A stretch of DNA of 64,000 nt from Pirellulales bacterium (GTDB taxonomy: Bacteria; Planctomycetota; Planctomycetia; Pirellulales; PALSA-1355): the NCBI GenBank assembly GCA_040877415.1, contig JBBDNV010000128.1:14953-78952 (forward strand), in the 5' to 3' direction. The notes beneath the pieces were generated by a model that saw nothing but the letters and a program-made list of their open reading frames with translations, was not told the origin of the DNA and did no database searches. Of this stretch, positions 6,201 to 24,137 are shown piece after piece; the stretch's first letter is position 1; the number at the start of each line of letters is the position of its first letter. The translations under genes and the position numbers were made by a program.

Positions 6201-6323
6201 TTGCGCTTTCGGAGTCGCAGCTTCGCTTGACCTCCCGAGCGGGGATTTGTGTTGACTTTTCGCCCAAAATAGGGGCACAATAGCCTTCGGCGACTACTGG
6301 AACACGGAATGGAGGCTGGGGAC

Positions 6324-8222: not shown

Positions 8223-8239
8223 AACCGGCCCGCGATTCC

Positions 8240-9472
8240 ATGATCTTCTTCCGGGCATGCGTCGTCGCTGTAATCGTCTCGCTGGCCGCCGTTGCGCGGG
8301 CCGGACAGGGCGACGCGAGGGATGGCGCGGCGCGGCTGCTGGAGATGGCCGAAAAGAACACGCCGCCGGCCGTCGCCGCGGCCCGCGCCCGGTACGAACA
8401 GCTTAAGAAGGCAAATCCCGACGACGCGCGGATCGACTACGTTTACGGCGTCGCGCTGGTGAACCAGCACCTCTACGGCGAAGCGCTGCCGCTTGTGGCG
8501 CGATACCTGGCCCGCCACGCGGACGACGGCAACGCTATCCGCACGAAGATCTGGATCGAGCTTCACGATCGCCAATATGCGCCGGCCCTCAAAGACGCCG
8601 TCAGCCTGAGCCGGCTATTTCCCAAACGTTCCGGCGCGAAGCCGAATCCCGATTTCGAAGAGGCCGCGCGTTTCCTGGGAGCGGTTTTCGGCTACCTGGA
8701 GCTGGCCAGGCCCGAAGCCGTCGACGAGAAGCTCCGCGCGGCGGGCAAGAACCAGGTGTTGTCGGCGCTCGGCGATGCGTATCTGAGCCCGTTCGAAGAG
8801 GGGCGCCAAAAGGTCTCCGGCCGGCTGGCCGAGCTCGACAAAGAGCAAAAGGAGAAGCAAGACCAGGCGGCCGAGACGCTTGACGAGCGCCAAGGCAAAG
8901 TGAAAGAGGCGATTGCCGACGATCAACAGAAAATCGCCGCGGGCACTGAGACCATCCAGGCCAGCGCCGAGCAACTGCGCGACGCCCAGCGGCAGTTCGC
9001 CGTGCTGAGCACGCAGCTAAATTCGCTCGAAAAGGATCGCGCTCGATTGAGTGCGCAAATCGTGACGGTCCAAACACAACTGCTCGATCTTCAGAAGGAC
9101 GTCAAGCTCGATGCCAAACGCAGCCCGACCGTTTCCATCGACACGGCCGCGAAACTCGCGCAACTGAGCGTGATACTGGCCGGCCTCGACCGACAAGCTT
9201 TCGCGATGGACGAGAAGATCCTCGCCCTGCGGACTCAAGCGACCCAATTGGGCGCCAAGGGCAACAAGGAATCGCAAACGCTGGCCGCAAACCGGGCCGC
9301 GGTCGGGCAGGTCGAGCGGCGCGCCAAGGCGCTGGAAAACCAGGTCCGCCGGCTCGAGGCCAAACGGCCCGTGCGCCGCGCGCCGACGGCCGAAATGAAG
9401 AAGTTTTCCACCTACCTGTCCTTCCCGTTCGAGGAAGAGAAACAGCGCGTCCTCGGCTGGTTCGAAGAGTAG
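8240..9472 (+). CDS. Secreted or membrane-anchored coiled-coil protein with an N-terminal TPR-like segment
   Basis: The ATG at 8240 gives MIFFRACVVAVIVSLAAVARA. The track start TTG 8219 overlaps the upstream stop. A long heptad-like Q/E/K/A/L-rich region follows (LDKEQKEKQDQAAETLDERQGKVKEAIADDQQKIAAG...). It is translationally coupled to the upstream Hint gene. Confidence 0.55.
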   Translation: MIFFRACVVAVIVSLAAVARAGQGDARDGAARLLEMAEKNTPPAVAAARARYEQLKKANPDDARIDYVYGVALVNQHLYGEALPLVARYLARHADDGNAIRTKIWIELHDRQYAPALKDAVSLSRLFPKRSGAKPNPDFEEAARFLGAVFGYLELARPEAVDEKLRAAGKNQVLSALGDAYLSPFEEGRQKVSGRLAELDKEQKEKQDQAAETLDERQGKVKEAIADDQQKIAAGTETIQASAEQLRDAQRQFAVLSTQLNSLEKDRARLSAQIVTVQTQLLDLQKDVKLDAKRSPTVSIDTAAKLAQLSVILAGLDRQAFAMDEKILALRTQATQLGAKGNKESQTLAANRAAVGQVERRAKALENQVRRLEAKRPVRRAPTAEMKKFSTYLSFPFEEEKQRVLGWFEE

Positions 9473-9655
9473 CGATCTGTCGTTTGTGCTAAACCGCATG
9501 CGCGGCGGTGAGCCGCGGCGTTTGCTCACGCCGGCGGCGCGTGTTGCTTGCTCCGGTGGGGCGGGGTACAGTCAAGGTTTCGGTTGTCACGAGCGGGAAA
9601 CTCCCGCGCCGAAGTGAATCTTGTTACCGATTTGCCCAGCCTCGCCGTACGCTCG

Positions 9656-11551
9656 ATGCCGCCCAGCCGTGCCGTTGGAATCGATTTGGGGACGACCCGC
9701 GCCGCCCTGGCTCGCATCGACGAGCCGGCCCGAAGCGCGATGATTCGCGACGCCCAGGGCGACCTGTTGATTCCCAGCGTCGTATTCTTCGAAGACGACG
9801 AGCTGGTTTGCGGCCGCGCCGCCAAACTGGCCGCGGTCGCGCGGCCGGACCGGGCGGCGGAGTTCTTCAAACGCGATTTGGGCCAGGCCGCGTACTCTCG
9901 GGCCATCGGCGGCGAGCTGCTGTCGGCCGAGCTGATCGAAGCCTGCCTGCTCAAAAAGCTCGAAGCCGAGTTGGCCGACCAGGGCATTGCAAAACCGGCC
10001 GTCGCGCTCTCCATGCCCGCCAGCTTCAATCAAGCACAGCGCCGGGCCCGGCTCGATGCCGCCAAGATCGCGCGCGTCGAGCTGTTGGGCACGATCAACG
10101 ACCCGCTGGCCGCGGCCCTGAGCTACGCCGAAAGCCAGGGCTATTTGCACCCATCGACGCCCGACAAGCCGGGCTGCCGCGTGCTGGTATTCGACCTGGG
10201 CGGCGGCAAGCTGGACGTGGCCATCGTGGAAATCAAGCCGGGCCGGCTGCGCACCATGGCCGTCGGCGGCAACGCGAAGCTGGGTGGCCGCGATTGGGAC
10301 CTCCGGCTCGCCGAACATCTGGCCGAGCAGTTTGCCAAGGAATTCGGCCAGGATCCGCGCCACGACATGACCAGCGTGCGGCGGCTGTTGGAAAGCGCCG
10401 AAGAAGCCAAACAATCGCTCTCGGCCCGGCAACAGGCGCGCGTGCAGGTCGAGCGCGGCAAGAGCGCGGCCGCCATCGTCGTCACGCGGCAGGCCTTCGA
10501 GGAGATGACCGCCGACTTGCTCGACGAGGCTGCCGCGATCACCGAAGGCATCGTGGCCCGGGCCGGAATGGCCTGGCGCGACGTGTCCGGGTTGCTGTTG
10601 GTCGGAGCCGCCACGCGGATGCCGATCGTGGCCAAACGGCTCGAAGAGCTGACCGGGCTGGTGCCGGCTGCCGCCGTCCATGCCGACGAAGCCGTGGCTC
10701 GCGGCGCGGCACTGTATGCCGAATGTCTGCTCGCGGCGCGCGAAGGCCGCCAAACGGACCTGCACGTGGCGATCACCGACCTGACGGTCCATAGCCTGGG
10801 CTTGGAGTGGAATGACCCGCGCACCGGACGCGTCGAAAACGTGGTCTTGATCGCGCGCGGCTCGGAGCTGCCGTGCGGCACCGTCGCCGCAGCCACGACC
10901 GACACGGCCGGCCAGTCGTCCCTGGTGATTCAACTCTTGGAGGGCGAAAGCCGCGCCGCCGACCAGTGCGCGCGAATCGCGCTGTTGACGGTCCGCGATC
11001 TGCCCGACGGGCTGCCCAAGGGAACTCAGATCGACGTGCACTATCAATTCACCGCCGAGGGCCGGCTGCAAGTGAGAGCCCGGCTGCCGCGGAGCGGACA
11101 ATCGCTGCCGATCAGCGTGCGGCGCGAACAGGGCTTGACCGAAAGCCAGATTTCCGATTGGCAACAGCTCATCGCGCGCGGCCAGGGGCTGCGGGCCATC
11201 CACGCGCTGTTGCCCGAGCACCGGCGACAGCGCGAGGCCCTGGCGGCGGCTCAGCCCCCTGGGCCGCGCGCGGCGAGCTCGGCCGGGCCGCCGGCCTTGC
11301 CGAACGAGACGCCCGCCGACGAGGAATTTACTCTGGAGACCGGCAGCGACGCGACCGCCCGGCGCCTGAAGAAACGCAGAATGACGCCGCGCCGATTGGC
11401 CATCATGCTCGGCGGATACGTCGTCTCCGCCTTGGTCGGCACGGCCATAGGCTACTATATATTGATGAGGATCGATCCCAGCTACAACTGGTGGCACCTG
11501 CGGCTGCCCGGGCTGCGCGACGCGCCGGCCTCGAGCGCCGACGTTCATTGA
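9656..11551 (+). CDS. Hsp70-family (DnaK-like) ATPase with a divergent C-terminal region and a C-terminal transmembrane anchor
   Basis: The ATG at 9656 gives MPPSRAVGIDLGTT (phosphate-1 motif). It also has DLGGGKLDVAIV (phosphate-2) and GAATRMPIV (adenosine motif). The C-terminal hydrophobic helix is LAIMLGGYVVSALVGTAIGYYILM. The track ORF start at 9548 is an upstream extension. Confidence 0.75.
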   Translation: MPPSRAVGIDLGTTRAALARIDEPARSAMIRDAQGDLLIPSVVFFEDDELVCGRAAKLAAVARPDRAAEFFKRDLGQAAYSRAIGGELLSAELIEACLLKKLEAELADQGIAKPAVALSMPASFNQAQRRARLDAAKIARVELLGTINDPLAAALSYAESQGYLHPSTPDKPGCRVLVFDLGGGKLDVAIVEIKPGRLRTMAVGGNAKLGGRDWDLRLAEHLAEQFAKEFGQDPRHDMTSVRRLLESAEEAKQSLSARQQARVQVERGKSAAAIVVTRQAFEEMTADLLDEAAAITEGIVARAGMAWRDVSGLLLVGAATRMPIVAKRLEELTGLVPAAAVHADEAVARGAALYAECLLAAREGRQTDLHVAITDLTVHSLGLEWNDPRTGRVENVVLIARGSELPCGTVAAATTDTAGQSSLVIQLLEGESRAADQCARIALLTVRDLPDGLPKGTQIDVHYQFTAEGRLQVRARLPRSGQSLPISVRREQGLTESQISDWQQLIARGQGLRAIHALLPEHRRQREALAAAQPPGPRAASSAGPPALPNETPADEEFTLETGSDATARRLKKRRMTPRRLAIMLGGYVVSALVGTAIGYYILMRIDPSYNWWHLRLPGLRDAPASSADVH

Positions 11552-11594: not shown

Positions 11595-13187
11595 ATGACG
11601 AACGAATCACCGCCCGCGGTCGGAATTGATCTGGGCACCACCTATACGGCCGTGGCGTATATCGACGATACGGGCAGGCCGATTACGCTGGTGAACGCCG
11701 AAGGCGACCTGGTGACGCCCAGCGCGGTATTGTTCGAGGGCGATACGGCGATCGTGGGCAAGGAGGCGCTCAAGGCGATTGCCACGGAAGCGGATCACGT
11801 GGCGCAATGCGCGAAGCGCGAGTTGGGCGAGCGGGCATTCCACAAAGTATTCGACGGCCGCCGCTTTCCGCCCGAGGCTCTGGAAGCGTTCATTCTCAAC
11901 AAGGTGCGTCAGGACGCCATCCGCCACATCGGCGACTTCCGCAAAGTGGTGATCACCGTGCCGGCCTATTTCGATGAAGTGCGCCGCAAGGCCACGCAAG
12001 ACGCGGGGCACATGGCCGGCTTCGAAGTGCTCGACATCATCAACGAGCCGACTGCCGCGGCCATTGCCCACGGCTTTTTGAAAGGATTTCTCAACCGCGA
12101 CGGCGCCGCCAACGAGCCGCGCAAGCTGCTGGTCTACGACCTGGGCGGCGGCACGTTCGACGTGACGGTGATGGAGATTCGCGGGCACGACTTTGCGGCC
12201 TTGGCCACCGACGGCGATGTGCAGCTCGGCGGCCAGGACTGGGATCAAAGGCTCGTGGACTACGTGGCCGAGGAGTTCAAGCTGACCTACAAGCTCGACC
12301 CGCGCGAGGAGTCCAATACGGCCGGCCGGCTGTGGCGCGAATGCGAAGACGCCAAGCGCACGCTGTCGGCCCGCAGCAAGGTGTCGATCAGTTGCGATTA
12401 CAGGAGCCAGGCGCTGCGCGTCGAGGTGACGCGCGAAAAATTCGAGGAAATCACCCAGGATCTGCTGGACCGCACGAGATTCACCACCAGGCAGACGCTG
12501 CAGGCGGCCGGGATGACCTGGTCCGATCTGGACTACGTGCTGATGGTCGGCGGCTCCACGCGCATGCCGATGGTTGCCCGAATGCTCCGCGAGCTGACGC
12601 GCAAGGAGCCCGATGCGTCGGTCTCGGTCGACGAAGCCGTGGCTCACGGCGCGGCGCTGCACGCCGCGATCATCCTGGCCCGCACGCGCGGCGAAACTCC
12701 CGTCCTGAACATCAAGAACGTCAATTCGCACAGCCTGGGCGTGGTGGCCAGCGATCCGCGCACCGATCGCCGCCGCAACGCCATCCTGATTCCGCGCAAC
12801 ACTACGCTGCCGGTGACCGCCAAGCGCGTGTTTCGCACGCAGAAGGCCAACCAGAAATCGATTCTCGTGCAGATCGTCGAAGGCGAGAGCGCCTCTCCCG
12901 AGGATTGCTCGCAAATCGGCAAGTGCGTGGTCCGCGATCTCCCGCCCGACCTGCCGGCCCAGACGCCGATCGAAGTCTGGTTCGAGTATCAGGAGAACGG
13001 CCGCTTGAACGTGCGCGTGATCGTCGCCGGCACGGGCCGCGAGCTCCAGCACGAGATCGCGCGCGAGAACAGCATGACGACCGAACAGCTCGACGCCTGG
13101 CGTCTGTTTATCGGCGGCCAGTCGATGATCAGCCACTCGCAACTTCAACCCGACGACGATGATCTGACGATCGTCGACGAGCTGTAG
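11595..13187 (+). CDS. Hsp70-family ATPase paralog (short, about 530 aa, lid-less)
   Basis: It carries VGIDLGTTYTAVAY, NEPTAAAIAHGF, YDLGGGTFDV and VGGSTRMPMV. It starts 43 nt after the previous Hsp70-like gene. Its antisense shadow is the 945-aa ORF 11607..14444. Confidence 0.8.
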   Translation: MTNESPPAVGIDLGTTYTAVAYIDDTGRPITLVNAEGDLVTPSAVLFEGDTAIVGKEALKAIATEADHVAQCAKRELGERAFHKVFDGRRFPPEALEAFILNKVRQDAIRHIGDFRKVVITVPAYFDEVRRKATQDAGHMAGFEVLDIINEPTAAAIAHGFLKGFLNRDGAANEPRKLLVYDLGGGTFDVTVMEIRGHDFAALATDGDVQLGGQDWDQRLVDYVAEEFKLTYKLDPREESNTAGRLWRECEDAKRTLSARSKVSISCDYRSQALRVEVTREKFEEITQDLLDRTRFTTRQTLQAAGMTWSDLDYVLMVGGSTRMPMVARMLRELTRKEPDASVSVDEAVAHGAALHAAIILARTRGETPVLNIKNVNSHSLGVVASDPRTDRRRNAILIPRNTTLPVTAKRVFRTQKANQKSILVQIVEGESASPEDCSQIGKCVVRDLPPDLPAQTPIEVWFEYQENGRLNVRVIVAGTGRELQHEIARENSMTTEQLDAWRLFIGGQSMISHSQLQPDDDDLTIVDEL

Positions 13188-13283
13188 GCGGGCCCACGGC
13201 ACCGGGCGCGATTGCACCTGCCGGCTGGGGCGATTTATACTAACCGGGTCGCTGCGTGCTCGTTCCGCCAGGGAATTCCCTCC

Positions 13284-16280
13284 ATGAAAATCTTTCCCCG
13301 CGGCACCGCGATCGCCGCATGGGGCTTTTGCGTGCTGGCGGCGTGGGCCGCGCCCGCTTGCGCCCAATTGCCGCCGGATAAAGAGCTGGCGACGCTGCGT
13401 GCCGCGCCCCAGTTCGAGGTCTCGCTGTTTGCGTCCGAGCCCCTGATCACCAACCCCGCGGCCATCGACGTCGATACGCAGGGCCGCTTGTGGGTGGCTG
13501 AAATCCAGTGGTATCGCGGAGCCGCCAAGAGCCTGCCCGCCGACAAGATCAAGGTGCTGGAAGATACCGACGGCGACGGCGTGGCCGACAAAGCCACCGT
13601 TTTTGCCGACGACGTTTTCGCCCCGATGAGCATTTGCGTGGCCGGCGAGCGGGTGTTCGTCGCCACGAGTCCCGACCTGTGGGTCTATGAAGACAAGAAT
13701 GGCGACCTGGTGGCCGACGGCCCGCCCCAAAAGCTGCTCACCGGCTTCGGCGGCAAGAACCACGATCACGGCGCGCACAGCCTCGTGCTCGGGCCCGACC
13801 ACAAGTGGTGGATGTCGCACGGCGACCGGGGCTTTGACGTCCGTGGCACCGACGGCTCGCGCATCAAGTATCAGTGGGGCGCCGTCGTGCGCGGCGAATT
13901 GGACGGCAGCCGGCTCGAAACCGTGGCGGTCAATTTCCGCAATCCGTACGAAGTCTGCGTCAGCTCGTTCGGCGAAGCATTCGTAAGCGACAACGACAAC
14001 GACGGCAACGAAAGCGTGCGCATCTGCTGGATTCTCGAAGGGGGCAACTACGGCTGGTTCGGCGGCCCGCCGTTTGGAAAGCAAGAACTCGACGATCAAC
14101 TCCCCGCCGATACGCCGTTCCGCCGGCATTGGCACTTCCGCGGCCACGTGCCGGGCTTCGTGCCGGCCACGCTGGTCACCGGCTTCGGCTCGCCCTCGGG
14201 CATATGCTTTTACGAGAGCGACGCCTTTGGGCCGAAGTACAAAAACGTTCCGCTGCACGCCGACGCCGGCCCGCGCGAATGTCGCGTCTATCGCCACGAG
14301 CCGGCCGGCTTCGGCATGAAAGCCACGAGCGAAATATTCCTCGGCAACCAGGGGGACGATTACTTTCGACCCGACGACGTTTGCGCGGCGCCCGACGGAC
14401 GGCTGTACGTCGCCGACTGGTACGACGGCGGAGTCGGCGGACACGCTTACAACAATCCCGACCAGGGCCGCATCTTCGTGCTTGCGCCCAAGGGGAAAAA
14501 ACTTTCACGCCGCGAAAAACCGGGGCCGTACGCAAGCATCGCCGATGCCGTCGAAGGCCTCAAAAGCCCCAACCTGGCCACGCAATATCTCGCCCGCGAG
14601 CGGCTGCTGGCCGAAGGTCCTGCGAGCGTGCCGGCACTCGGCGAATTGTTGGCCGGCCCCGAACCGAACCATCGGGCCCGGGCCTTGTGGCTGCTGGACC
14701 GCATCGGGGACGGCGCGCGCGAATCGGTCGAGAGGCAACTAAAATCTCCGGAACCGGCGTTTCGCGCATTGGCGGTGCGCATCTTGCGCCGACACGGAAA
14801 CCAGCACGGCGATGCAATCCTGGCACTGGCCGGTGACTCGTCAGACGAAGTGCGCCGCGAAGTACTGTTGGCCACGCGCTGGCTCGACGGCGAGAAGGCC
14901 GAAGCGGCGCTGGCCCAATTCGCCGCCGACTACGACGGGACCGACCGTTATCTGCTGGAAGCCGTCAACATTGCCGCGGGCGATCGCCGCGAAGCGCTCC
15001 TGGCCCGATTGGAAGCACAAGGCCCGCTGTCGATCGAGCAATTTCCGCTGTTGCAACTGCTCAGTCCTAAGCGGGCGGCCGCCCAACTGGTCGATCGGCT
15101 CCGAGCGGACCATCTCGACGAAAAGACGGCCCGCGCGCTCATCGAAACCGCGGTGAACATTCCGGCGCCCGAGGTCGGCTGGGGTCTGTTGAAGCTGGCC
15201 GAGAATCGGGAACTTTCGGCCGCGCTGCGCCGCGCGGCGCTCGGCAAGGTGGCCGCGGGCGCCAGCCGCGGCGGCGTTTGGGGAGCCATGTCGCGCGATC
15301 CAAAGCTCACGGCCGCGCTAGGTGCCCTATTGGCCGACGACGAGCTGCGCACCACGGCATTGGCAGCCGTGGACGCGCTGCGATTGCGGAAGCTCTGCGA
15401 CAACGTGCTGGCGATCGCGCGCTCGGCCAATCTCGACCCGGCCCAGCGCGAACAAGCCATCGACGTGGCCGCGAACCTCAAGCCCTCGGGCATCGCGCCG
15501 GCCTTGCGCGAGCTTTTGTCCGATCCCGAGCCGGCGGTTTCCGGCGCCGCCTTGCGACGGCTGGTCGATTTGCAAGACATCAAGAGCTTGCGCGAAATAC
15601 TGGCAAGCGACAAATTCTCCGCCGACGCGCGCCGGCGAGCCGTTGACCAGGCCGTCGAAACCACGGCCGGAGCGATCCTGCTCGTGCGGCTGATCGACGA
15701 AGACCGCCTTTCGGACGAATTGAAACGAGCCGTGTTGACCAAGGCCGCCTCGCACGCCGATTCGAACGTCCGCGGGCTGTACGAAAAATTCATCCCCGAA
15801 GACCAGCGGTCGAAGAAACTGGGCAGCGCCATTTCGGCCGACGAGATCCTGGCCCTTGCGGGCGACGCGAACCGCGGGCGGCTGATCTTCTACCAGAGCT
15901 CGGCTGCGGGGTGCCAGCAGTGTCACGCCGTGCAGGGGTTCGGCGGAACGACCGGGCCCGAGCTATCGAATATCGGCAAGAAGTACGAACGAGGGGCGCT
16001 GTTGGAGACCATTCTCGATCCGTCCAAGGCCATCGCCCCGGAATACATACCGTACTTGCTCGAAACGAAAGGCGGCCAGGTGTACGCCGGCTTTCTGGTG
16101 GAGCGCCGGGACGACCGGGTCGTGCTGCGGGACGTCAAGAACAAGACCTGGCGCGTGGCGACCGACGAGGTCGAAGCCCTCGTTGGGCAGCAAAAATCGC
16201 TGATGCCGGAGTTGATATTAAGCGAAGTGACAGCACAGGACGCGGCAGACCTCTTGGCATTTCTCGCAAGCCTCAAGTAA
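13284..16280 (+). CDS. PVC-type membrane-bound dehydrogenase domain / HEAT repeat / c-type cytochrome (CxxCH) protein
   Basis: The ATG at 13284 gives the signal peptide MKIFPRGTAIAAWGFCVLAAWAAPACA. A beta-propeller-like N-terminus (LWVAEIQWY, DTDGDGVADK) is followed by HEAT-like repeats. The C-terminal heme motif is CQQCHAVQGFGGTTGPEL. Confidence 0.8.
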   Translation: MKIFPRGTAIAAWGFCVLAAWAAPACAQLPPDKELATLRAAPQFEVSLFASEPLITNPAAIDVDTQGRLWVAEIQWYRGAAKSLPADKIKVLEDTDGDGVADKATVFADDVFAPMSICVAGERVFVATSPDLWVYEDKNGDLVADGPPQKLLTGFGGKNHDHGAHSLVLGPDHKWWMSHGDRGFDVRGTDGSRIKYQWGAVVRGELDGSRLETVAVNFRNPYEVCVSSFGEAFVSDNDNDGNESVRICWILEGGNYGWFGGPPFGKQELDDQLPADTPFRRHWHFRGHVPGFVPATLVTGFGSPSGICFYESDAFGPKYKNVPLHADAGPRECRVYRHEPAGFGMKATSEIFLGNQGDDYFRPDDVCAAPDGRLYVADWYDGGVGGHAYNNPDQGRIFVLAPKGKKLSRREKPGPYASIADAVEGLKSPNLATQYLARERLLAEGPASVPALGELLAGPEPNHRARALWLLDRIGDGARESVERQLKSPEPAFRALAVRILRRHGNQHGDAILALAGDSSDEVRREVLLATRWLDGEKAEAALAQFAADYDGTDRYLLEAVNIAAGDRREALLARLEAQGPLSIEQFPLLQLLSPKRAAAQLVDRLRADHLDEKTARALIETAVNIPAPEVGWGLLKLAENRELSAALRRAALGKVAAGASRGGVWGAMSRDPKLTAALGALLADDELRTTALAAVDALRLRKLCDNVLAIARSANLDPAQREQAIDVAANLKPSGIAPALRELLSDPEPAVSGAALRRLVDLQDIKSLREILASDKFSADARRRAVDQAVETTAGAILLVRLIDEDRLSDELKRAVLTKAASHADSNVRGLYEKFIPEDQRSKKLGSAISADEILALAGDANRGRLIFYQSSAAGCQQCHAVQGFGGTTGPELSNIGKKYERGALLETILDPSKAIAPEYIPYLLETKGGQVYAGFLVERRDDRVVLRDVKNKTWRVATDEVEALVGQQKSLMPELILSEVTAQDAADLLAFLASLK

Positions 16281-16321
16281 ACTTCCCACCCGAGGCCCTC
16301 CTGTTCCAAGGTAACCCGATC

Positions 16322-19300
16322 GTGCAAACGCGGAAGCGAACAATTCGGCACGTCGTCCGAATCGGCCTGTTGCTTTTGGCGCTGGGCCCCGGCGTGCTCC
16401 CCGCCCAGCCGGCCTCGGCTCAAGCACTGACGCCCGAAGAAGCGCTCAAGCGCTTCAAGCTGGCCGACGGCTTCGACGTCGAGCTCTACGCCAGCGAGCC
16501 GCTGGTGCGGCAGCCGGTGACTATGACGTTCGACGATCGCGGGCGGATGTGGGTGATCCAGTATCTTCAGTATCCCAATCCCGCGGGGCTCAAGCCCCTC
16601 GAGGTCGACCGCTACCTGCGCACCAAGTACGATCGCGTGCCCGCGCCGCCGCCGCTGGGGCCGAAAGGGAACGACAAGATCACGATCCTGGAAGACACCA
16701 ATGGCGACGGCCGCGTCGACCGGGTTAAGGATTTTGTCACCGGACTGAACCTGGCTTCCGCCCTGGCGCTGGGGAACGGCGGAGTCTACGTCGGCCAGGC
16801 GCCCTATTTGTTGTTCTACCCCGATCGCAACGGCGACGACGTGCCCGACGGCGACCCGCAGGTGGTGCTCGATGGTTTTGGCATGGAAGACGCCCACGCG
16901 GTGATCAACTCGATCCAGTGGGGACCCGACGGCTGGCTGTACGGCGCGCAGGGCAGCACGGTGACGGCCGACGTCCGCGGCATCGGCTTTCAGCAGGGCA
17001 TTTGGCGCTATCATCCCCGCACGAAGCGTTTTGAATTGTTTTCCGAGGGGGGCGGCAACACCTGGGGCCTCGATTTCGACCGCCACGGAAACGCCATTGC
17101 CGGCACGAACTACTCGAATGCGGTTTGCCTGCACCAGGTCCAAGGCGGCTACTACGTCAAAGGATTTTCCAAGCACGGTCCGCTGCACAATCCGTACACG
17201 TTCGGCTACTTCGAGCACGTCACGCACCAGGGGCACAACGGCGGGCACGTCACCTGCGGCGGCATCGTCTATCAGGGCGGAGACTGGCCCGAAGAGTTCA
17301 CTGGCGCCTACATCGGCGCGAACCTGCTTTCGAACGCCGTTTACTTTAGCGCGCTGGAGCCGGCGGGTTCCACGTTCAGGACGCGCTACGTCGGCACGCT
17401 GCTGGAGACCGACGACGTCTGGTTCCGCCCGATCGATTGCCTCTGGGGCCCCGACGGCTCGGTGTTCGTCGCCGATTGGTACGACAAGCGGGCCAATCAC
17501 GTGATTCCCGAAGACACGTGGGACAAGACCAACGGCCGGATCTGGAAGATCGTCAAGCGCGGCACGCGGCGGGCCGAACCACTGGCCCTCTCCAAGCTTC
17601 CCAGCGACGAGCTGGTGGATTTGCTCGAGCACGCGAACGCCTGGTATCGGCGCGAGGCGCGGCGCATCTTGTCCGAAAGGCGCGACCTGACGGTGTTGCC
17701 GCGGCTGCGAAGGATGATTGCCACCGGCCGCGAAGCCGTGGCGCTCGAGGCCTTGTGGGCCCTCTATGCGAGCGGCGGCTGGGACGAGGAAACATCGCTG
17801 AGCCTGTTGGATCACGCCAGCGCCGACGTACGCGCCTGGAGCGTGCGCTTCATCGGCGACGACATGCCGCCGCTCGCGCCGGAGCTGCGAAAACGGCTCG
17901 TGCAAATGGCGGAAAAAGAAACCAGCCTTCAGGTGCGCAGCCAACTGGCCTCGACCGCGAAGCGGCTGCGCGCAGCCGACGGGCTGGCCATCGTCGAGAA
18001 ATTCCTGCGCCGCGCCCAAGACAACTCCGACCCCCACATTCCGCTCTTGGTGTGGTGGGCCATCGAGGACAAGGCGATTTCCGACTCCGATCGCGTTTTG
18101 AAAATCCTCGCCGACCCCCAGATCTGGCTGCTGCCGCTGGTTGAGAACACGATCGCCCCGCGGCTCGCGCGGCGCTACCTGGCCGAAGAAACGGACGCCA
18201 GCTTCAGCGCGTGCGCGCGGCTGTTGTCACTGGCCCCGCGCAGCGAAGACGTGCTGCGGCTCATCGCGGCCATGGACCAGGATTTTTCCGGCCGGCCGTT
18301 CGACGAGGTGCCGGCGCCGCTCGCCTCCCTGCTCGCGCGGCTCTGGGAAAGCGCCGATTCGGATCCGATCGTCACCCGGTTCGCCATGCGCATGGGAAAC
18401 CGCGCGGCATACCAGCGGGCGGTCGAGCGCATGATCGACCGCAACGAGCCGCTTAAAGCGCGGCTGGCGCTGGTGTCCGCCGTCGGCCAGGCCGCGCGGG
18501 CCGATGCGCTGCCGCGGTTGCTCAAACTGCTCGACGAGTCGTCATCCAAGGGCGACGCGGTGCGCATGGCGGCGCTGGCGGCGCTCGAACATTATCCGTC
18601 CCAATCGATCGCCCGCGAAGTGCTGGACCGCTACGGGCAGTTCACTCCCGAGCTGCGCAGCCGCGCGATCGGGCTTTTGGCGAGCCGCGCAACGTGGTCA
18701 CAGGCCCTGGTCGAGGAGGTCGCCGCCGGCAAGATCGAAGCGGCCGACGTTTCGGTCGATCAGCTTCGCCAGATGCTGGCGCTGGGCGATCCGGCGCTCG
18801 ATCGATCGATCGAAGCCCGCTGGGGCAAGGTTCGCCCCACCACCCCCGGCGAGAAAATGTCGTACGTCCCGGTGCTCGGCCGCGTGCTGAGCGCGGGACA
18901 GGGCGATCTGGATAGCGGCCACAAGCTGTACATGAAGCATTGCGGCACCTGCCACACGCTGCACGGCGAGGGAATCAAGATCGGGCCCGACCTGACCACC
19001 GCCGACCGCAAGAATCGCGACGCCCTGCTGCTCAGCATTCTCGATCCCAGCGGCTATATCCGCCCCGAGTTCGTCTCGCAAACCGCGCTGTTGAACGACG
19101 GCCGCCTGCTCACGGGGCTCGTGACCGAGTCGAGCCCCCGCGAGATCACGATTGTGGACGCCAAACAGCAGAAGACCACGCTTGCCCGCGACGAGATCGA
19201 CCAGATTCATCCATCGACCACGTCGCTGATGCCGGAGCGTCTGTTGGAAACGCTTGCAGAACAGGAGCTGCGCGACCTGTTCAGCTATCTGCAATCCGAC

Positions 19301-19333
19301 GCCCCGCAGATCCGCTCCGCGGCGAAGCCATAG
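16322..19333 (+). CDS. Second PVC-type membrane-bound dehydrogenase domain / HEAT / c-type cytochrome paralog
   Basis: An in-frame GTG at 16322 gives MQTRKRTIRHVVRIGLLLLALGPGVLPAQPASAQA (signal peptide). The track ORF start at 15911 overlaps the upstream gene. The architecture matches the upstream gene (RMWVIQYLQY, DTNGDGRVDR, HEAT repeats, CGTCHTLHGEG). Confidence 0.8.
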   Translation: MQTRKRTIRHVVRIGLLLLALGPGVLPAQPASAQALTPEEALKRFKLADGFDVELYASEPLVRQPVTMTFDDRGRMWVIQYLQYPNPAGLKPLEVDRYLRTKYDRVPAPPPLGPKGNDKITILEDTNGDGRVDRVKDFVTGLNLASALALGNGGVYVGQAPYLLFYPDRNGDDVPDGDPQVVLDGFGMEDAHAVINSIQWGPDGWLYGAQGSTVTADVRGIGFQQGIWRYHPRTKRFELFSEGGGNTWGLDFDRHGNAIAGTNYSNAVCLHQVQGGYYVKGFSKHGPLHNPYTFGYFEHVTHQGHNGGHVTCGGIVYQGGDWPEEFTGAYIGANLLSNAVYFSALEPAGSTFRTRYVGTLLETDDVWFRPIDCLWGPDGSVFVADWYDKRANHVIPEDTWDKTNGRIWKIVKRGTRRAEPLALSKLPSDELVDLLEHANAWYRREARRILSERRDLTVLPRLRRMIATGREAVALEALWALYASGGWDEETSLSLLDHASADVRAWSVRFIGDDMPPLAPELRKRLVQMAEKETSLQVRSQLASTAKRLRAADGLAIVEKFLRRAQDNSDPHIPLLVWWAIEDKAISDSDRVLKILADPQIWLLPLVENTIAPRLARRYLAEETDASFSACARLLSLAPRSEDVLRLIAAMDQDFSGRPFDEVPAPLASLLARLWESADSDPIVTRFAMRMGNRAAYQRAVERMIDRNEPLKARLALVSAVGQAARADALPRLLKLLDESSSKGDAVRMAALAALEHYPSQSIAREVLDRYGQFTPELRSRAIGLLASRATWSQALVEEVAAGKIEAADVSVDQLRQMLALGDPALDRSIEARWGKVRPTTPGEKMSYVPVLGRVLSAGQGDLDSGHKLYMKHCGTCHTLHGEGIKIGPDLTTADRKNRDALLLSILDPSGYIRPEFVSQTALLNDGRLLTGLVTESSPREITIVDAKQQKTTLARDEIDQIHPSTTSLMPERLLETLAEQELRDLFSYLQSDAPQIRSAAKP

Positions 19334-19438: not shown

Positions 19439-19460
19439 GTTCAAATCCAGTTGCCCCGAC
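19439..19460. repeat. Direct repeat copy A (GTTCAAATCCAGTTGCCCCGAC) with a tRNA T-loop-like core; left boundary of the low-GC islet
   Basis: It shares GTTCAAATCCAGT with copy B and TCCAGTyGCCyCGACTyT with copy C. It cannot be folded into a full tRNA. Confidence 0.4.
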
Positions 19461-19616: not shown

Positions 19617-19979
19617 ATGCCGTTCGCCTTCGAGAAGTTACAGGTCTATCAGAAGGCGATTTCATTCGCCGATGAAATCTGCACTCTCACGCGCGACCTG
19701 CCGCGAGGATACTTCTTTTTGGCCGACCAGCATAACCGCGCCGCGCTCTCCATCGCCGCCAACATCGCCGAAGGCAACGGCCGCTTCACCAAAGCCGATC
19801 GACGCAACTTTTTCGGCATCGCGCGTGGGTCAGTGCAAGAATGTGTGCCGCCGCTTGAATTGGCCGCGCGGCGGGGCTTGATCAAGACCACGCAGCATGC
19901 TCAATTCAAGTCTCAGCTCGAAGAGATTTCAATGATGCTCTCCGGCCTCATCAAGGGGCTGGACAATCGGGAGATCTGA
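19617..19979 (+). CDS. Four-helix-bundle protein (TIGR02436 / 23S rRNA intervening-sequence protein family)
   Basis: The 120-aa protein MPFAFEKLQVYQKAISFADEICTLTRDLPRGY...AANIAEGNGRF...GSVQEC is typical of the family. It lies in a lower-GC stretch. Confidence 0.7.
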   Translation: MPFAFEKLQVYQKAISFADEICTLTRDLPRGYFFLADQHNRAALSIAANIAEGNGRFTKADRRNFFGIARGSVQECVPPLELAARRGLIKTTQHAQFKSQLEEISMMLSGLIKGLDNREI

Positions 19980-20110
19980 CATGAGCGACTGGACGCCGGC
20001 CAGAAAAGTTCAATAACTGTCCGATTGCCGAGATTCTTGATGATGGGAATGTAATACGTTCCCACTAAGGTACATATAGCCGAGTCGCGACGGGTATTAG
20101 ACAAGACTAT

Positions 20111-20614
20111 GTGCCGAAGGACAACCGCGTGGACGAGACGTTCGCGGATTGCTGGAACCGCAAGCGGTCAAATCTCGGTTTTAAGGATATCGAGACCGAG
20201 TTCATCGATTGCGGTGGGCATGTGCTCCCAAGAGACGCCGCGCCGTGTCTCGTTTTCGATATGGCGGCCCGCCCAGCACCGATCTGGGAAGTGTTCGGCA
20301 TTCCGTCCGACTGGTCGCCGGCGGATCGCGAGCGGCTGGCGGCGTGCCGGATGATTGGCTCGGACGGTGCCGGCAATCCAATCTGCGTGGAGCTGGGCAC
20401 CGGGGTAGTCGTACTCCTCGATCACGAGGACTGGTTTCGCACTCGTCAGTTCGTGAATACGAGCGTCCAGAAACTCGCCGAGTGCTTGTTGGCGTACATT
20501 GGTCAGCAAGAGTCGGAGCGGTTCCGCTCAGCCGCGCAGGCCATCGATCCGGCAGCGTTTGCGGTGGGATCGTTCTGGTGGCACGATGCCGCTTGCTTGG
20601 ACACAGACGCCTGA
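20111..20614 (+). CDS. SMI1/KNR4 (SUKH-1) family protein, putative polymorphic-toxin immunity protein
   Basis: The SUKH core signature is present as IGSDGAGNPICVELGTGVVVLLDHEDW (compare IGxDGxGNxLCLDL...V..DHE). The local GC content is lower than in the surrounding genes. Confidence 0.6.
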   Translation: MPKDNRVDETFADCWNRKRSNLGFKDIETEFIDCGGHVLPRDAAPCLVFDMAARPAPIWEVFGIPSDWSPADRERLAACRMIGSDGAGNPICVELGTGVVVLLDHEDWFRTRQFVNTSVQKLAECLLAYIGQQESERFRSAAQAIDPAAFAVGSFWWHDAACLDTDA

Positions 20615-20662
20615 CGGAGCCCCCTTCACCACAGGCCCGGCGAAGGATTGCCCAGGGTGACC

Positions 20663-20686
20663 GTTCAAATCCAGTCGCCTCTCGCC
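20663..20686. repeat. Direct repeat copy B (GTTCAAATCCAGTCGCCTCTCGCC)
   Basis: It shares 13/13 nt with copy A (GTTCAAATCCAGT) and 12/12 nt with copy C (TCCAGTCGCCTC). It sits between the plus-strand gene pair and the minus-strand module. Confidence 0.4.
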
Positions 20687-20812
20687 GCACAGGCGAGGTT
20701 ACGCCGTGAGCTTCACGACCCTTGTCGCGATTTGGACTTCCGGCCCGGAATGCAGGAAGCTTGCCACGTAGTCGTGGACAAACGGTTCAAACGAGCGACA
20801 GTCGCCCCGATC

Positions 20813-21160
20813 TTATCGTAACGTCAAATCCCGTCGTCGGTTGCTACAGCGACTGGGGACCGGATTTGAACTTTTCTGAGCAATCATGCTCCAAATGGCT
20901 TTTGGCTTTCGTCGTCTCGACGGGGCACCTTGGCACTTCGACCTTTCTTGCTCCTGACGAAGTGCATAGCCATCGAGTCCTGAGTTTCGCTTCGTGGGGA
21001 AGACTCGACCGCCAGACTGCTGGTATCCTCCCGGCTGTGTAGCCCACCCCTGTTCTTTCTTCTTCCTCGCAAAGTACACCGCCTCAGCCTTACCTAAATT
21101 TAATTTACCGCACGCTGACGCGCAATCGATTCTTCCCGATACCGAAGATATTCCTTCCAC
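20813..21160 (-). pseudogene. Orphan-like gene fragment created by a ~135 bp duplication of the 3' region of the 270-aa gene
   Basis: The aa stretch GKAEAVYFARKKKEQGWATQPGGYQQSGGRVFPTKRNSGLDGYALRQEQE is about 90% identical to the C-terminal region of the 21530..22342 product. The flanking sequence is unrelated. It overlaps the 151-aa gene by 61 nt. Confidence 0.4.
20937..21072. repeat. ~135 bp direct DNA repeat, copy 1 (about 90% identical to 21719..21855)
   Basis: The near-identical string acgaagtgcatagccatcgagtcctgagtttcgctt.gtggggaagac...ctgttctttcttcttcctcgcaaagta occurs in both copies. Confidence 0.7.
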
Positions 21161-21555
21161 AACTTCAGCATTTGCACAACTTCATCGACGAGTTCAAGGC
21201 AATCGGTGTTGCCGCATTGTGCTGCCGCGTGAGCGCATTCGTCCATGAGCGCGTGAAACCGAGGCAATTGTTCGAGCGCCCACGTTTCCGACGCCGTCCA
21301 TTGAGGTGCGCTCGTGATAAAACCATCGAGCTGGATGTCAAACGCGAGGTACGTGTAGACAAACGCCGAGAATTTCCAAACCTTGCTGTCTGTCGCCGAT
21401 CTCCACTCCTGGTCGATAGGAGTTTCGTAAAGCCCCAGTTCGCACCCTCCGCAATTGAGTAAGCATTCGTCGAACGCGCACAGAAATCTTTTTGCGGGAT
21501 GCGTGTCCTCCAACGACATGACTGGACGATTAATGGTCTTGCGGCGATGTCTCAT
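21100..21555 (-). CDS. Hypothetical Cys-rich cytoplasmic protein, candidate immunity/partner protein of the upstream 270-aa gene
   Basis: The 151-aa ORF has diverse, non-GC-biased composition (ECLLNCGGCELGLYETPIDQEW...). It overlaps the upstream gene by 26 nt (translational coupling). No family was recognised. Confidence 0.45.
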   Translation of the reverse strand: MRHRRKTINRPVMSLEDTHPAKRFLCAFDECLLNCGGCELGLYETPIDQEWRSATDSKVWKFSAFVYTYLAFDIQLDGFITSAPQWTASETWALEQLPRFHALMDECAHAAAQCGNTDCLELVDEVVQMLKLWKEYLRYREESIARQRAVN

Positions 21556-22342
21556 TTTGTCGATTTTTTGCCTGTTTGATCGCGCGCTGTAACGCAGCTT
21601 CCAGCTCAGGATCGTCTAGCCGATCCGGGTGTCCTGTCCGCCCTTCCCCGGCTACACTAGCCTGCCCGCGTAAGTATTCAGGATCGTGCCCTTGCGCTAG
21701 TCCTCGCCTGAAGAAGTCTTCTTGCTCTTTACGAAGTGCATAGCCATCGAGTCCTGAGTTTCGCTTAGTGGGGAAGACGCGCCCGCCAGACTGCTGGTAA
21801 CCTCTCGGCTGTACTGCCCACCCTTGTTCTTTCTTCTTCCTCGCAAAGTATACCGCTTCCGCCTTGCCAAGAAAATCCATGGCAGACTTGTGAACGAGCG
21901 ACATCCGGTCGCCGGTCGGCTTAAAGCCTTGCGCCTCGGCGCCGAGCACGGCGGTGTTGAAGATCTGCACGGCATCGTCACGCGAGAGAGTTCCAGCTCG
22001 AACCCGTTTCTCAAGCTCGTAGACCCAGATCTGTGGCATCGCCTGAACGCCGGGCACGCGAGCCCAATAGGCCCCCAGGATGGCATTGCGAAGGCCACCT
22101 ATGAATGCGCCGGCTCCGATACCCGCCCCCACCGCTGCGCCAGCGCCGGCCCCGCTTCCGACTTTGGGAAGCCAAGAGCTCGTCGGCCCCGTCGTTGGCC
22201 AAGTCGACGATTGTGCGCCGCTGAAAGAAACGAGCTGCGCGGTTGTTTGGTCCCGTTGAAACGCCGCAGTTTGAATCGGATTGGATTCGGCGCCGCTTAC
22301 TTCGCAAAGCAACGCCAACAGCCGGTCACTCCAGACAGCCAA
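21530..22342 (-). CDS. Hypothetical protein with a glycine-zipper segment (GSGAGAGAAVGAGIGAGAFIGG); its C-terminal portion is duplicated downstream
   Basis: The 270-aa ORF is in the low-GC islet. It has a Gly/Ala zipper typical of membrane-inserting peptides or toxins. Its C-terminal 110 aa contain the duplicated module. Confidence 0.5.
   Translation of the reverse strand: MAVWSDRLLALLCEVSGAESNPIQTAAFQRDQTTAQLVSFSGAQSSTWPTTGPTSSWLPKVGSGAGAGAAVGAGIGAGAFIGGLRNAILGAYWARVPGVQAMPQIWVYELEKRVRAGTLSRDDAVQIFNTAVLGAEAQGFKPTGDRMSLVHKSAMDFLGKAEAVYFARKKKEQGWAVQPRGYQQSGGRVFPTKRNSGLDGYALRKEQEDFFRRGLAQGHDPEYLRGQASVAGEGRTGHPDRLDDPELEAALQRAIKQAKNRQNETSPQDH
21719..21855. repeat. ~135 bp direct DNA repeat, copy 2
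   Basis: See copy 1 at 20937..21072. Confidence 0.7.
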
Positions 22343-22358
22343 CTCTCGGTAAAAAAGT

Positions 22359-22376
22359 TCTAACGGTATCCAGTCG
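22359..22376. repeat. Direct repeat copy C (TCCAGTCGCCTCGACTCT); right boundary of the low-GC islet
   Basis: It shares 12/12 nt with copy B and 15/18 nt with copy A. Confidence 0.4.
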
Positions 22377-22579
22377 CCTCGACTCTGAAATCGAACAGCC
22401 CTTCATCGATCACGGTGCAGGGCTGTTCGTCGTTTCAGGAATGCGACTTACGGCGAATGCCAAATAAGTGGGCTGGGTTCAAATCAAGCGCGAGAAAGAC
22501 CGGGCGACGTCCAAAGTTTCCTACTGTTGGCTTTGGCGAGTTCAAACATCCCGTCGCCCCGCAACAAGATGATCGTGCC

Positions 22580-22617: not shown

Positions 22618-24015
22618 TCACCCGATGATCTCCTTCACCACTTCGCCGCGGGAGATGGGGAACGGACGTCCGAGCGCGTCGTGCAGTTCGGCCGTCGGAG
22701 AATAGCCCAGGCAATGGTAAAGGGTGGCCAGCAGGTCCGGTGGGCGGACCAGTCCTTCCATCGGTTCGCCGCCGATCGCGTCGGACGCGCCGTGCACGTG
22801 TCCCCCACGGATGCCGCCTCCGGCCATGGCCACCGAAAACACATTTCCCCAATGATCGCGGCCGCCCGCCGCGTTGATTTTTGGAGTGCGACCGAACTCC
22901 GCCAGACAAACGACCAACGTGTCGTCGAGCATGCCGCGATCGACCAAATCGCCGAGCAAGGCCGAATACGCCTGGTCGAACTGCGGCAGCAGCACGCTGC
23001 GCAGCCGCTGGATCTCCCGGGTGTGTGAATCCCAGCACGGGGTATCTGAAGGCTCGTCGGGAGAGCGAAACCAATTGACTTGAACTAAGCTCACGCCCGC
23101 TTCCACCAACCGGCGAGCCAAGAGCACGCTCTGACCGAACTGCGTGCGCCCGTAACGATCGCGGGCGGCGGCTGGCTCAGCTTCGAGCTGGAAGGCGGCT
23201 CGCGAACGTGGCGACGTGAGCAGATCGAACGCCTGCCGCGTGGCGGCGTCGAACGGCGCCAGCGCTCCGCCGCGCTCGACGGCCGCGCGGTGCCCGTTCA
23301 TCACGGACAAAAGGGACCGTCGCCCTTCGAGCCTGGTCAGCGGCAAGTCAGTCGGCAGCGTAAATTCCGGAATCCTGAAGTTGGCCGACGCCGGCTCGCA
23401 GCGGAACATCCACGGGTCGAACGCACGACCGAGGAACCCGGCGTCTTGCCCCGGCCAAATGGAACCATCCGTATTGAAGATCTGGTGCGGCAATCGCACG
23501 GCCGAGGGCAGTGACGTAGCGCCGTCACGGAGGCGGCGAATCATCGAACCGAAACTCGGCCAGTTGTTGGGCGCGCCCGGATTGGCATTCTCCATGTTCA
23601 TCGGCGCATGGGGCTGACCGGTCAACATGTAGTAGCCGCTCGATGAATGGGCGTTGTCGCCCGTTCGCACGGCGCGCAACAGGCACAGGTGCCTGGCCAA
23701 CAAGGATGTCTTGGGCAGCAATTCGGCCACGTTCAGGCCGGGTACCGTCGTGGCAATGGACTTGAGTTCGCCGCGGACCTCGATGGGAGCGTCGGGCTTG
23801 GGGTCCCAGGTGGAATGCTGGGCGGGCCCCCCGAACAGAAACAGAACGATGCATGACTTGGCGCGCCCGCGACGAGGCGCGGCGTCTTCGGCGGCCGCCT
23901 GCCGCAACAAGTCGGGCAATGTCAAACCGGCCACGCCAAGCGACCCAATTCGCAGCATCTCTCGTCGCGAAATTCCATCGCACAATCGCACCGGCTGCGA
24001 CTCAATCGTGAACAT
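22618..24015 (-). CDS. DUF1501 family protein with a twin-arginine signal (second copy)
   Basis: The ATG at 24015 gives MFTIESQPVRLCDGISRREMLRIGSLGVAGLTLPDLLRQAAA. It carries DUF1501 motifs (GGPAQHSTWDPKP, AEFGRTP, GRDHW). The track ORF start at 24126 is an extension. Confidence 0.85.
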   Translation of the reverse strand: MFTIESQPVRLCDGISRREMLRIGSLGVAGLTLPDLLRQAAAEDAAPRRGRAKSCIVLFLFGGPAQHSTWDPKPDAPIEVRGELKSIATTVPGLNVAELLPKTSLLARHLCLLRAVRTGDNAHSSSGYYMLTGQPHAPMNMENANPGAPNNWPSFGSMIRRLRDGATSLPSAVRLPHQIFNTDGSIWPGQDAGFLGRAFDPWMFRCEPASANFRIPEFTLPTDLPLTRLEGRRSLLSVMNGHRAAVERGGALAPFDAATRQAFDLLTSPRSRAAFQLEAEPAAARDRYGRTQFGQSVLLARRLVEAGVSLVQVNWFRSPDEPSDTPCWDSHTREIQRLRSVLLPQFDQAYSALLGDLVDRGMLDDTLVVCLAEFGRTPKINAAGGRDHWGNVFSVAMAGGGIRGGHVHGASDAIGGEPMEGLVRPPDLLATLYHCLGYSPTAELHDALGRPFPISRGEVVKEIIG

Positions 24016-24074
24016 GGTTGTGATCTGTCGGACGGTGCGACCATCGCTGCACCCCGGCAGCGTCAGATTCTGGC

Positions 24075-24098
24075 CGCTCCTGGTCAAAAATCGGTCAT
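24075..24098. promoter_or_regulatory. 21-bp palindromic motif, copy 2 (tcaaaaatcggtcatttttcgaca), about 60 nt upstream of the DUF1501 gene 2 start
   Basis: This is the best palindrome of the family. Its position is consistent with an operator or promoter element. Confidence 0.5.
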
Positions 24099-24137
24099 TT
24101 TTCGACACGGCAAGGGGAACAAGCAAAGGACCGTAAT

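Follow-up and report, generated by a model that had tools for sequence, protein, structure and literature searches.

The locus described here lies in a stretch of 64,000 nucleotides (the window) from Pirellulales bacterium assembly GCA_040877415.1, contig JBBDNV010000128.1, positions 14,953-78,952 of the forward strand, and very probably represents a decayed piece of a polymorphic toxin system. Its central gene is an open reading frame (ORF) of 270 amino acids with a TTG start, located at 21530-22342 on the minus strand and containing a glycine-zipper segment. Behind it on the same strand comes an ORF of 151 amino acids at 21100-21555, whose product, designated ImmA, is the candidate cognate immunity protein of the toxin tip encoded upstream. 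The two frames overlap over 21530-21555, or 26 nucleotides (nt). A third minus-strand ORF, at 20813-21160, contains a repeat of part of the first gene, and a SUKH-4 family gene at 20111-20614 on the plus strand converges with the array. An original prediction made on this DNA had described the glycine-zipper ORF and its overlap with a Cys-rich neighbor; the coordinates, and the seven cysteines of ImmA, agree with it. G+C content is about 0.53-0.58 over 19800-22500, compared to about 0.65 in the flanks, which delimits a low-GC island. Sequences were examined by scans against Pfam, NCBIfam and PHROGs and by profile searches of the PDB.

A homology search with the 270-residue protein returned 64 relatives, most of them about 400 amino acids in length and all from Pirellulales/Planctomycetia metagenome assemblies. 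The relatives split at the motif (F)LGKAEAVYFARKK, with shared sequence upstream and differing sequence downstream. The window protein has LGKAEAVYFARKKK at this point (21830-21871, minus strand), and the tail classes of the 64 homologs part right after it, which makes it the point of tip exchange. At least six tail classes occur behind the same junction motif. One class, designated tail A and found in about 40 of the 64 homologs as well as in the window protein, follows the pattern ...GGYQQSGGRVFPTKRNSGLDGYALRxEQExFFxRGL...LRGQA...EAALQRAI. A tip of the HNH/colicin-pyocin DNase type occurs in about 14 (P0030, PF01844, E 3.8e-6) and an AHH tip in one (P0052, PF14412, E 1.1e-17), while three further tip types have no Pfam match. 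Polymorphic toxins are defined, in the general framework for such systems (Zhang et al. 2012, PMC3482391), by a shared body, here about 300 residues without the tip, joined to unrelated C-terminal tips; HNH and AHH are recognized toxin families. The search also bears on a possibility raised in the original prediction, that the protein might have housekeeping homologs with the same C-terminus; none was found.

Full-length members are ordered as an N-terminal domain (N-domain), a 'WDxSxHPR...GGQW' motif with a Gly-rich linker, the glycine-zipper, a helical core, LGKAEAVYFARKK, and an exchangeable toxin tip. The N-domain is helical, about 145 residues long, and ends in 'W(D/N)xSxHPRxxxGxxxGGQW'; AlphaFold2 (AF2) models place its helices at residues 39-54, 58-87 and 89-121, with a predicted local distance difference test score (pLDDT) of 76-94. 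The window gene is 5'-truncated with respect to this layout. It retains the glycine-zipper segment, helical core, junction motif and tail-A tip, and it lacks the N-domain, for which no match was found anywhere in the 64-kb window. DNA homology to full-length genes ends at about 22342, within the 'GGQW' codons of the HPR motif, and the frame is closed upstream by a TGA at 22405-22403, about 60 nt beyond 22342. All 38 residues that are invariant in the family alignment are kept. The NCBI annotation, under a Pirellulales metagenome-assembled genome (MAG) with locus tags WD063_12575 and WD063_12580, gives the gene as a hypothetical protein of 169 amino acids starting at M102.

The other end of the gene is altered as well. 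Alignment with loci L001 and L016 reveals that an A-run has lost 1 nt between 21570 and 21569 on the minus strand; as a consequence the toxin frame runs past its old stop, its last codons are shifted, and the 26-nt overlap with ImmA is created. The normal stop and start in these loci overlap by 4 nt in the form ATGA, as seen in L001, L016, L002 and L017. Because it is without the family N-terminal domain, the 270-residue gene is itself orphan-like. The earlier description of an orphan-like module therefore extends to the whole locus, with the SUKH gene tied to it by proximity only.

When 1.84 billion cluster representatives were searched with a profile, 427 matched at E<=0.001; these sort into independent groups according to the part of the profile matched. 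Profile positions 1-170 alone, corresponding to the N-domain, match well over a hundred more clusters with differing C-termini. Partners of the N-domain in those proteins include a DddA-like deaminase (E 1.8e-16), a WHH nuclease (E 5e-7) and PT-HINT. Since its C-terminal partners vary, the N-domain appears to head the proteins of a larger Planctomycete toxin superfamily. Pfam, NCBIfam, PHROGs and the PDB hold no match to it, it corresponds to no known trafficking domain, and the sequences of the family, inspected by eye, show no signal peptide. The N-domain would serve as an export or trafficking module common to many Planctomycete toxins, and it may mark an unknown export route.

Two observations concern the ends of this module. 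The 'WDxSxHPR...GGQW' stretch is matched seven times in P0218, a metagenome protein of 2245 amino acids with Phage_Mu_F, Acb1, PARP and Hint domains, and may be a linker between domains, or a processing site, of a general kind that such phage proteins also have; the window gene is truncated exactly at this motif. At locus L010, a second core (1145-1267) lies directly behind the ImmA gene with no N-domain between, an arrangement that suggests tandem arrays of headless toxin modules, in a contig that ends before the structure becomes readable.

The glycine-zipper hydrophobic segment of the window protein, VGSGAGAGAAVGAGIGAGAFIGGL, was read from the sequence and spans residues 61-84 (22091-22162, minus strand). 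It is conserved across the family, is of low confidence and disordered in the AF2 model, and would act as a membrane-insertion or translocation element. The conserved helical core behind it, a pre-toxin region (21833-22081, minus strand), matches the core hidden Markov model (HMM) at E 2e-50, with helices at pLDDT 72-84, and precedes every kind of tip, whether tail A, HNH, AHH or others. Searches of Pfam, NCBIfam, PHROGs and the PDB gave nothing consistent for it. The glycine-zipper and core together most likely help the tip across the target membrane as a translocation module, because in sister proteins they carry nuclease tips that have to reach the target cytoplasm and because Gly-rich hydrophobic stretches precede tail A in Rhs proteins and in other architectures too.

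Tail A itself is a C-terminal toxin-candidate domain of about 100 amino acids (21557-21868, minus strand; tail-A HMM E 2e-41), corresponding to residues of about 158-262 in the 270-residue protein. Its N-terminal half, 21719-21868, is conserved and bears SGGRVFPTxxNSGL, while its C-terminal half, 21557-21718, is allele-specific. About 20 clusters of other architecture end in tail A, their extreme C-terminus being matched by profile positions 312-400. Among these are P0203 (2154 amino acids, RHS_repeat E 6.5e-20), P0213 (2932 amino acids, with RHS repeats and DUF6531, from a Planctomycetota MAG) and P0164 (784 amino acids, with RHS repeats), the last from the cultured Blastopirellula sediminis JC732 (WP_230217447.1). 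The name "RHS repeat-associated core domain-containing protein" is given at source to P0213, P0164 and a member of the P0178 cluster, this one from a Thermoguttaceae MAG. P0164 resembles the window protein in the tip alone, at 55% identity over 94 amino acids (E 1e-23). A word-indexed homology search with the tail-A profile yielded only short proteins and contributed little. The proposal that homologs of the tail be sought at the ends of large Rhs proteins in other Planctomycetes thus had a positive outcome.

ImmA has 21 homologs, several of them on the same contigs as tail-A toxins. Three of its cysteines, C31, C35 and C107, are conserved in the family, and the AF2 model predicts a soluble, cytosolic four-helix bundle (pLDDT 92.6). 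ImmA is not a SUKH protein; it has no match in Pfam, NCBIfam or the PDB, and no specific structural relative. Tail A likewise lacks a match in these three databases and has no fold match. The fetched loci were scanned with HMMs made for the N-domain, core, tail A and ImmA. Linkage, which is an association read from gene order alone, was counted over the 12 distinct loci with a readable downstream gene. The ImmA gene lies directly behind tail A in 11 of these 12. Ten belong to the toxin family (the window, L001, the second copy in L002, L004, L007, L009, L010, L011, the partial L012, and L016). The eleventh is the Rhs locus of B. sediminis, L017, where an ImmA homolog (42% identity over 136 amino acids, E 4e-37) overlaps the Rhs stop by 4 nt. 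In L001, two ImmA paralogs stand in tandem. By these gene orders, tail A and ImmA are linked and travel as a pair between Rhs proteins and the toxin family, and ImmA would neutralize tail A by binding.

Loci with the HNH tip have a different gene directly downstream. In all four (the first copy in L002, L003, L006 and L013), the tip is followed by a SUKH gene (PF14567, E 5e-20) and then by a leftover ImmA gene, which in L013 and the first copy of L002 is preceded by a C-terminal remnant of tail A. The orphan ImmA genes and tail-A remnants behind HNH and SUKH show that an HNH plus SUKH module replaced tail A and left its immunity gene in place.

The third ORF of the window array contains a relic of a second tail-A cassette, consisting of the junction motif and the N-terminal half of tail A, cut after '...LRQEQE' (20945-21094, minus strand). 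The direct repeat pairs 20945-21094 with 21719-21868 at 90% identity, far beyond chance, and starts 5 nt past the stop codon of the 151-residue ORF, exactly at the junction motif. It had been reported as about 135 bp encoding about 50 amino acids at about 90% identity; identity and coding length stand at 90% and 50 codons, with three amino-acid differences, and the nucleotide length is corrected to 150. By HMM, the relic covers only positions 5-53 of tail A and the 13 final core positions, which make up the junction motif. The original prediction took its different tail for an alternative C-terminus. A tail is present, as a read-through of 43 codons (20813-20944, minus strand), basic and of low complexity with no recognizable domain, but the relic is the same tip type cut mid-domain. 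Sequence beyond 20942 has no similarity, in any frame, to any family protein or locus by blastx or HMM, and its reading as an alternative toxin tip was dropped on that account.

The relic and the main copy differ at 15 positions, 11 synonymous and 4 non-synonymous (dS 0.42, dN 0.035, dN/dS 0.085). This ratio indicates purifying selection on both copies, and we conclude that they diverged as separate alleles in different lineages; the same excess of synonymous differences disfavors an in situ tandem duplication as the origin of the repeat. The relic is as near to a foreign allele as to its neighbor, with 91% nucleotide identity to L002 and 90% to the main copy. Sliding comparison reveals the main gene as a mosaic, with a switch at about 21720 that matches the end of the relic. 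The core resembles L002 and L016 (77-88%) and not L001 (51-71%), while the C-terminal half of tail A together with ImmA resembles L001 and L016 (76-91%) and not L002 (53-74%). The tail-A remnant of L013 is the complementary piece, HMM positions 63-105. The boundary after 'EQE' in tail A may be a recurrent breakpoint, a lead that comes from two cases.

Taken as a whole, these features make it highly probable that a Pirellulales polymorphic toxin system has left a decayed, orphan-type segment at this locus. In addition to a shared body with unrelated tips, the family has a tip-specific gene directly downstream (ImmA behind tail A in 11 of 12 loci, SUKH behind HNH in four) and orphans further on (the window relic, ImmA in L002, L003, L006 and L013, and tail-A remnants in L013 and L002). 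An N-terminal domain that specifies secretion was not found, and the window gene has no N-domain. The earlier reading of the array as a polymorphic toxin or orphan cassette is borne out by the alternative tips after one junction, by tail A as the tip of Rhs proteins, and by the linkage to ImmA. In the history we propose, the window gene lost everything upstream of 'GGQW' and kept its core and tail A. Recombination of the present tail-A/ImmA cassette into the locus probably displaced an earlier tail-A allele, which was then truncated to the 150-nt relic. The translationally coupled ImmA would be the cognate immunity protein of tail A. Today ImmA would guard the cell against tail-A toxins of neighbors, borne on Rhs or N-domain proteins, and the SUKH-4 gene perhaps guards against other toxins. 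Tail A would be a toxin that acts in the cytoplasm of the target cell, because its protector is predicted to be cytosolic. The headless toxin gene is probably not deliverable, and would be a silent remnant or at most a recombination reservoir.

Several findings weigh against this reading or parts of it. The 270-residue ORF is otherwise intact, and with every invariant residue kept, its expression and activity are possible. Among the polar residues of tail A, Thr, Asn, Ser, Gln, Arg and Gln are invariant and Tyr and Glu almost so; His, Asp and Cys are absent from the invariant set, and tail A matches no known toxin in fold or sequence, so no known catalytic set or enzymatic mechanism can be proposed for it. 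The exception to ImmA linkage is locus L014, with an Rhs gene of 2932 amino acids, where the next ORF is weakly ImmA-like (hhalign probability 32%, 99 collinear columns). Within six complete modules, variation is greatest in the C-terminal half of tail A and in ImmA, with mean identities of 64% and 61%; their pairwise identities correlate weakly (rho 0.52, n=6 modules); core and ImmA identities over the six modules show no correlation (rho -0.11). Finally, no secretion genes were found conserved next to the fetched loci.

The intactness of the ORF is the starting point for an alternative, that it is a functional short toxin with its own start, using the glycine-zipper for insertion or export and forming a working pair with ImmA. 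Its 270 uninterrupted codons and full set of 38 invariant residues fit such a toxin, as do the persistence of coupling to ImmA, though altered, and the further core copy without an N-domain directly behind the ImmA gene of L010. However, every other well-covered family member has the N-domain, in frame or frameshifted. The sole apparent short form, P0003, was considered as a second N-truncated form that might point to a maintained short isoform; this was dropped, as an N-domain is encoded upstream on the P0003 contig, out of frame. A search for promoter-like sites, a weak test for Planctomycetes, had no positive result; the window gene abuts the hairpin downstream of the DUF1501 gene, NCBI calls only 169 amino acids from M102, and the 3' end has already been changed by the 1-nt deletion. 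We regard a functional short toxin as unlikely, and retain the decayed polymorphic toxin gene as the better account of the locus.

Considerably less probable is an intracellular toxin-antitoxin pair, serving addiction or abortive infection and never exported, in which the repeat would be an ordinary local duplication. The locus resembles such a pair in being a small two-gene operon with overlapping frames, with no signal peptide by reading and no conserved secretion gene nearby, and a HEPN_AbiU2 gene occurs near one related locus. Unlike type II toxin-antitoxin systems, however, it has its protector gene downstream, and neither protein has a toxin-antitoxin or DNA-binding domain in Pfam or NCBIfam. 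The tip is common to RHS-repeat proteins, which are exported toxins, and sister proteins with HNH, AHH or deaminase tips, SUKH genes and orphan immunity arrays are hallmarks of polymorphic toxins. The dN/dS of 0.085 for the repeat is a misfit to duplication in situ followed by decay. A phage-associated family with MuF-type or polyvalent-protein delivery, which would make the locus a prophage remnant, is equally improbable: the sevenfold 'WDxSxHPR...GGQW' match in P0218 and the low-GC island would accord with it, but family proteins have no PHROG matches, no phage genes are seen near the locus in the window or in the fetched loci, and the element shared with P0218 is a short linker motif, not a domain, of which the window copy is itself devoid.

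For the polymorphic toxin family to which the window gene is assigned, the closest known counterparts are the Rhs-CT/RhsI and CdiA-CT/CdiI systems, whose orphan modules are a concept that reportedly goes back to Poole and colleagues in 2011 and to Koskiniemi and colleagues in 2014. Shared features are a conserved body with exchangeable tips and a cognate immunity gene directly downstream, displaced tip fragments that keep a piece of the junction, and the accumulation of orphan immunity genes; tail A is itself an Rhs tip in other genomes. Unlike those systems, the window protein has no RHS/YD repeats, DPxGL, VENN, PAAR, two-partner secretion (TPS) or other known delivery domain. It has LGKAEAVYFARKK at the junction, in a family whose body measures only about 300 residues, and the main gene here is headless. 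RHS_repeat was matched neither by the 270-residue protein nor by its relatives of about 400 amino acids. The protein belongs to none of the Rhs, CdiA, LXG and MuF classes, as the defining repeats and domains are absent. Locus L014 contains a textbook orphan Rhs module (13278-14650) behind its 2932-residue Rhs gene: the orphan repeats NLYGYGGSSPFVFMDPWGLFQQAQDFVQQWG, 32 residues around the DPWGL cleavage motif, and continues with an LHH nuclease domain and then a SUKH gene. It serves as a positive control for the cassette model.

Other comparisons concern delivery. Effectors of the type VI secretion system that depend on prePAAR and Eag have N-terminal transmembrane or glycine-zipper segments, and Tse5 is a pore-former of the Rhs type. 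The likeness would lie in a Gly-rich hydrophobic segment upstream of the tip, plausibly for entry into or crossing of the target membrane. By contrast, no PAAR, prePAAR or Eag-like genes were detected here, and ImmA is predicted to be soluble, not a membrane protein. Because the same segment carries nuclease tips, it would serve translocation rather than pore formation as in Tse5. LXG/WXG toxins of type VII secretion systems share with the family an N-terminal helical hairpin of about 100-140 residues, the lack of a signal peptide, and variable toxins after the hairpin, and mobile WXG systems have been described in planctomycetes (Zhang et al. 2012, PMC3482391). However, no Pfam WXG100 or LXG match was obtained at E<=1 and the fetched flanks showed no EssC/YueA-like ATPase; the likeness is one of shape only, to a domain that the window does not have.

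Systems of this kind are well known. On tail A, ImmA and the N-domain, which seem to be families not yet described, the literature searches turned up nothing. Polymorphic toxins have been studied best in Proteobacteria, Firmicutes and Bacteroidetes, and very little has been worked out for the Planctomycetota, which have an unusual cell envelope and secretion biology. The locus offers a handle on three modules, namely tail A on both Rhs proteins and a Planctomycete-specific carrier, its protector ImmA, and the N-domain, which occurs joined to deaminase, WHH, HNH and HINT modules. Because B. sediminis JC732, a cultured strain, has the pair of tail-A Rhs protein and ImmA, toxicity, target and delivery are directly testable. 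The window copy itself is a decayed remnant and an ordinary example of cassette turnover. More tentatively, and with the balance leaning against it, tail A and ImmA could be a new toxin-immunity pair with a non-canonical action, combining an all-helical tip of about 100 residues (SGGRVFPTxxNSGL...RGQA, with no His/Asp/Cys set), entry by glycine-zipper, an undescribed Planctomycete export through the N-domain with its 'WDxSxHPR...GGQW' motif, and an 'EQE' breakpoint for swapping the immunity-specifying half together with ImmA.

The convergent SUKH-4 gene, on the strand opposite to the array and 199 nt from it, passes the PF14435 model (E 1.4e-11, 45.3 bits against a cut-off of 25.5). It had been assigned earlier to SMI1/KNR4 at a distance of about 200 nt. 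The SUKH superfamily, spacing and opposite strand were right, and the family is SUKH-4: there is no match to the SMI1/KNR4 (SUKH-1) model, which belongs to the same superfamily. The superfamily comprises immunity proteins (Zhang et al. 2011, PMC3113570), and SMI1_KNR4 and SUKH_5/6-type genes directly follow the HNH tips of sister loci. The window gene differs in that it is neither co-directional with nor directly downstream of a toxin tip, has no nuclease tip adjacent, and shows no similarity to the SUKH genes behind HNH tips in related loci. It is probably an orphan immunity gene of the same low-GC island, its link to the array being given by proximity and the shared island. Within this island it adjoins a gene for a 23S rRNA intervening-sequence protein of 120 amino acids, from a four-helix-bundle family (19617-19979, plus strand; PF05635, E 1e-29).

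A 17-nt motif, GTTCAAATCCNGTYSCC, resembling a tRNA T-loop and 3' acceptor, occurs at 19439-19455 (plus), 20663-20679 (plus) and 20855-20871 (minus), all within 1.45 kb. None would be expected in shuffled sequence, for a pattern that was chosen post hoc. The direct copies bracket the 23S rRNA intervening-sequence protein and SUKH-4 genes, and the inverted copy follows 74 nt after the relic loses homology. The motif is absent from the 17 fetched loci, and the flanks of its copies are unlike. The copies may mark an insertion or inversion, but they could not be tied to an integration or inversion. A tRNA or attachment-site origin of the island was dropped, since neither ARAGORN nor Rfam finds a tRNA in the window, nor does it contain any other Rfam family.

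The genes that flank the island are ordinary for planctomycetes, a DUF1501 gene at 22618-24126 (minus strand) on one side and a DUF7133/HEAT/cytochrome c gene at 15911-19333 (plus strand) on the other. A DUF1501 gene lies directly upstream of the toxin locus in three genomes, the window and loci L003 (5474-7189) and L006 (4112-5638). The three are different paralogs with 27-37% identity, so the adjacency is not simple synteny; it could be chance, DUF1501 being abundant in Planctomycetes, or an insertion preference. Further from the locus, a gene at 6309-8222 (plus strand) encodes a protein of 637 amino acids with a hydrophobic, signal-peptide-like N-terminus and a C-terminal pre-toxin HINT domain (PF07591, E 2e-17), right after which the protein stops without a toxin tip; downstream of it is a coiled-coil-like ORF of 417 amino acids (8219-9472). 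Two tandem pairs of paralogs, all on the plus strand, complete this part of the window: Hsp70-like genes at 9548-11551 and 11595-13187, and the DUF7133/HEAT/cytochrome c genes at 13212-16280 and 15911-19333, whose listed ORFs overlap at 15911-16280.

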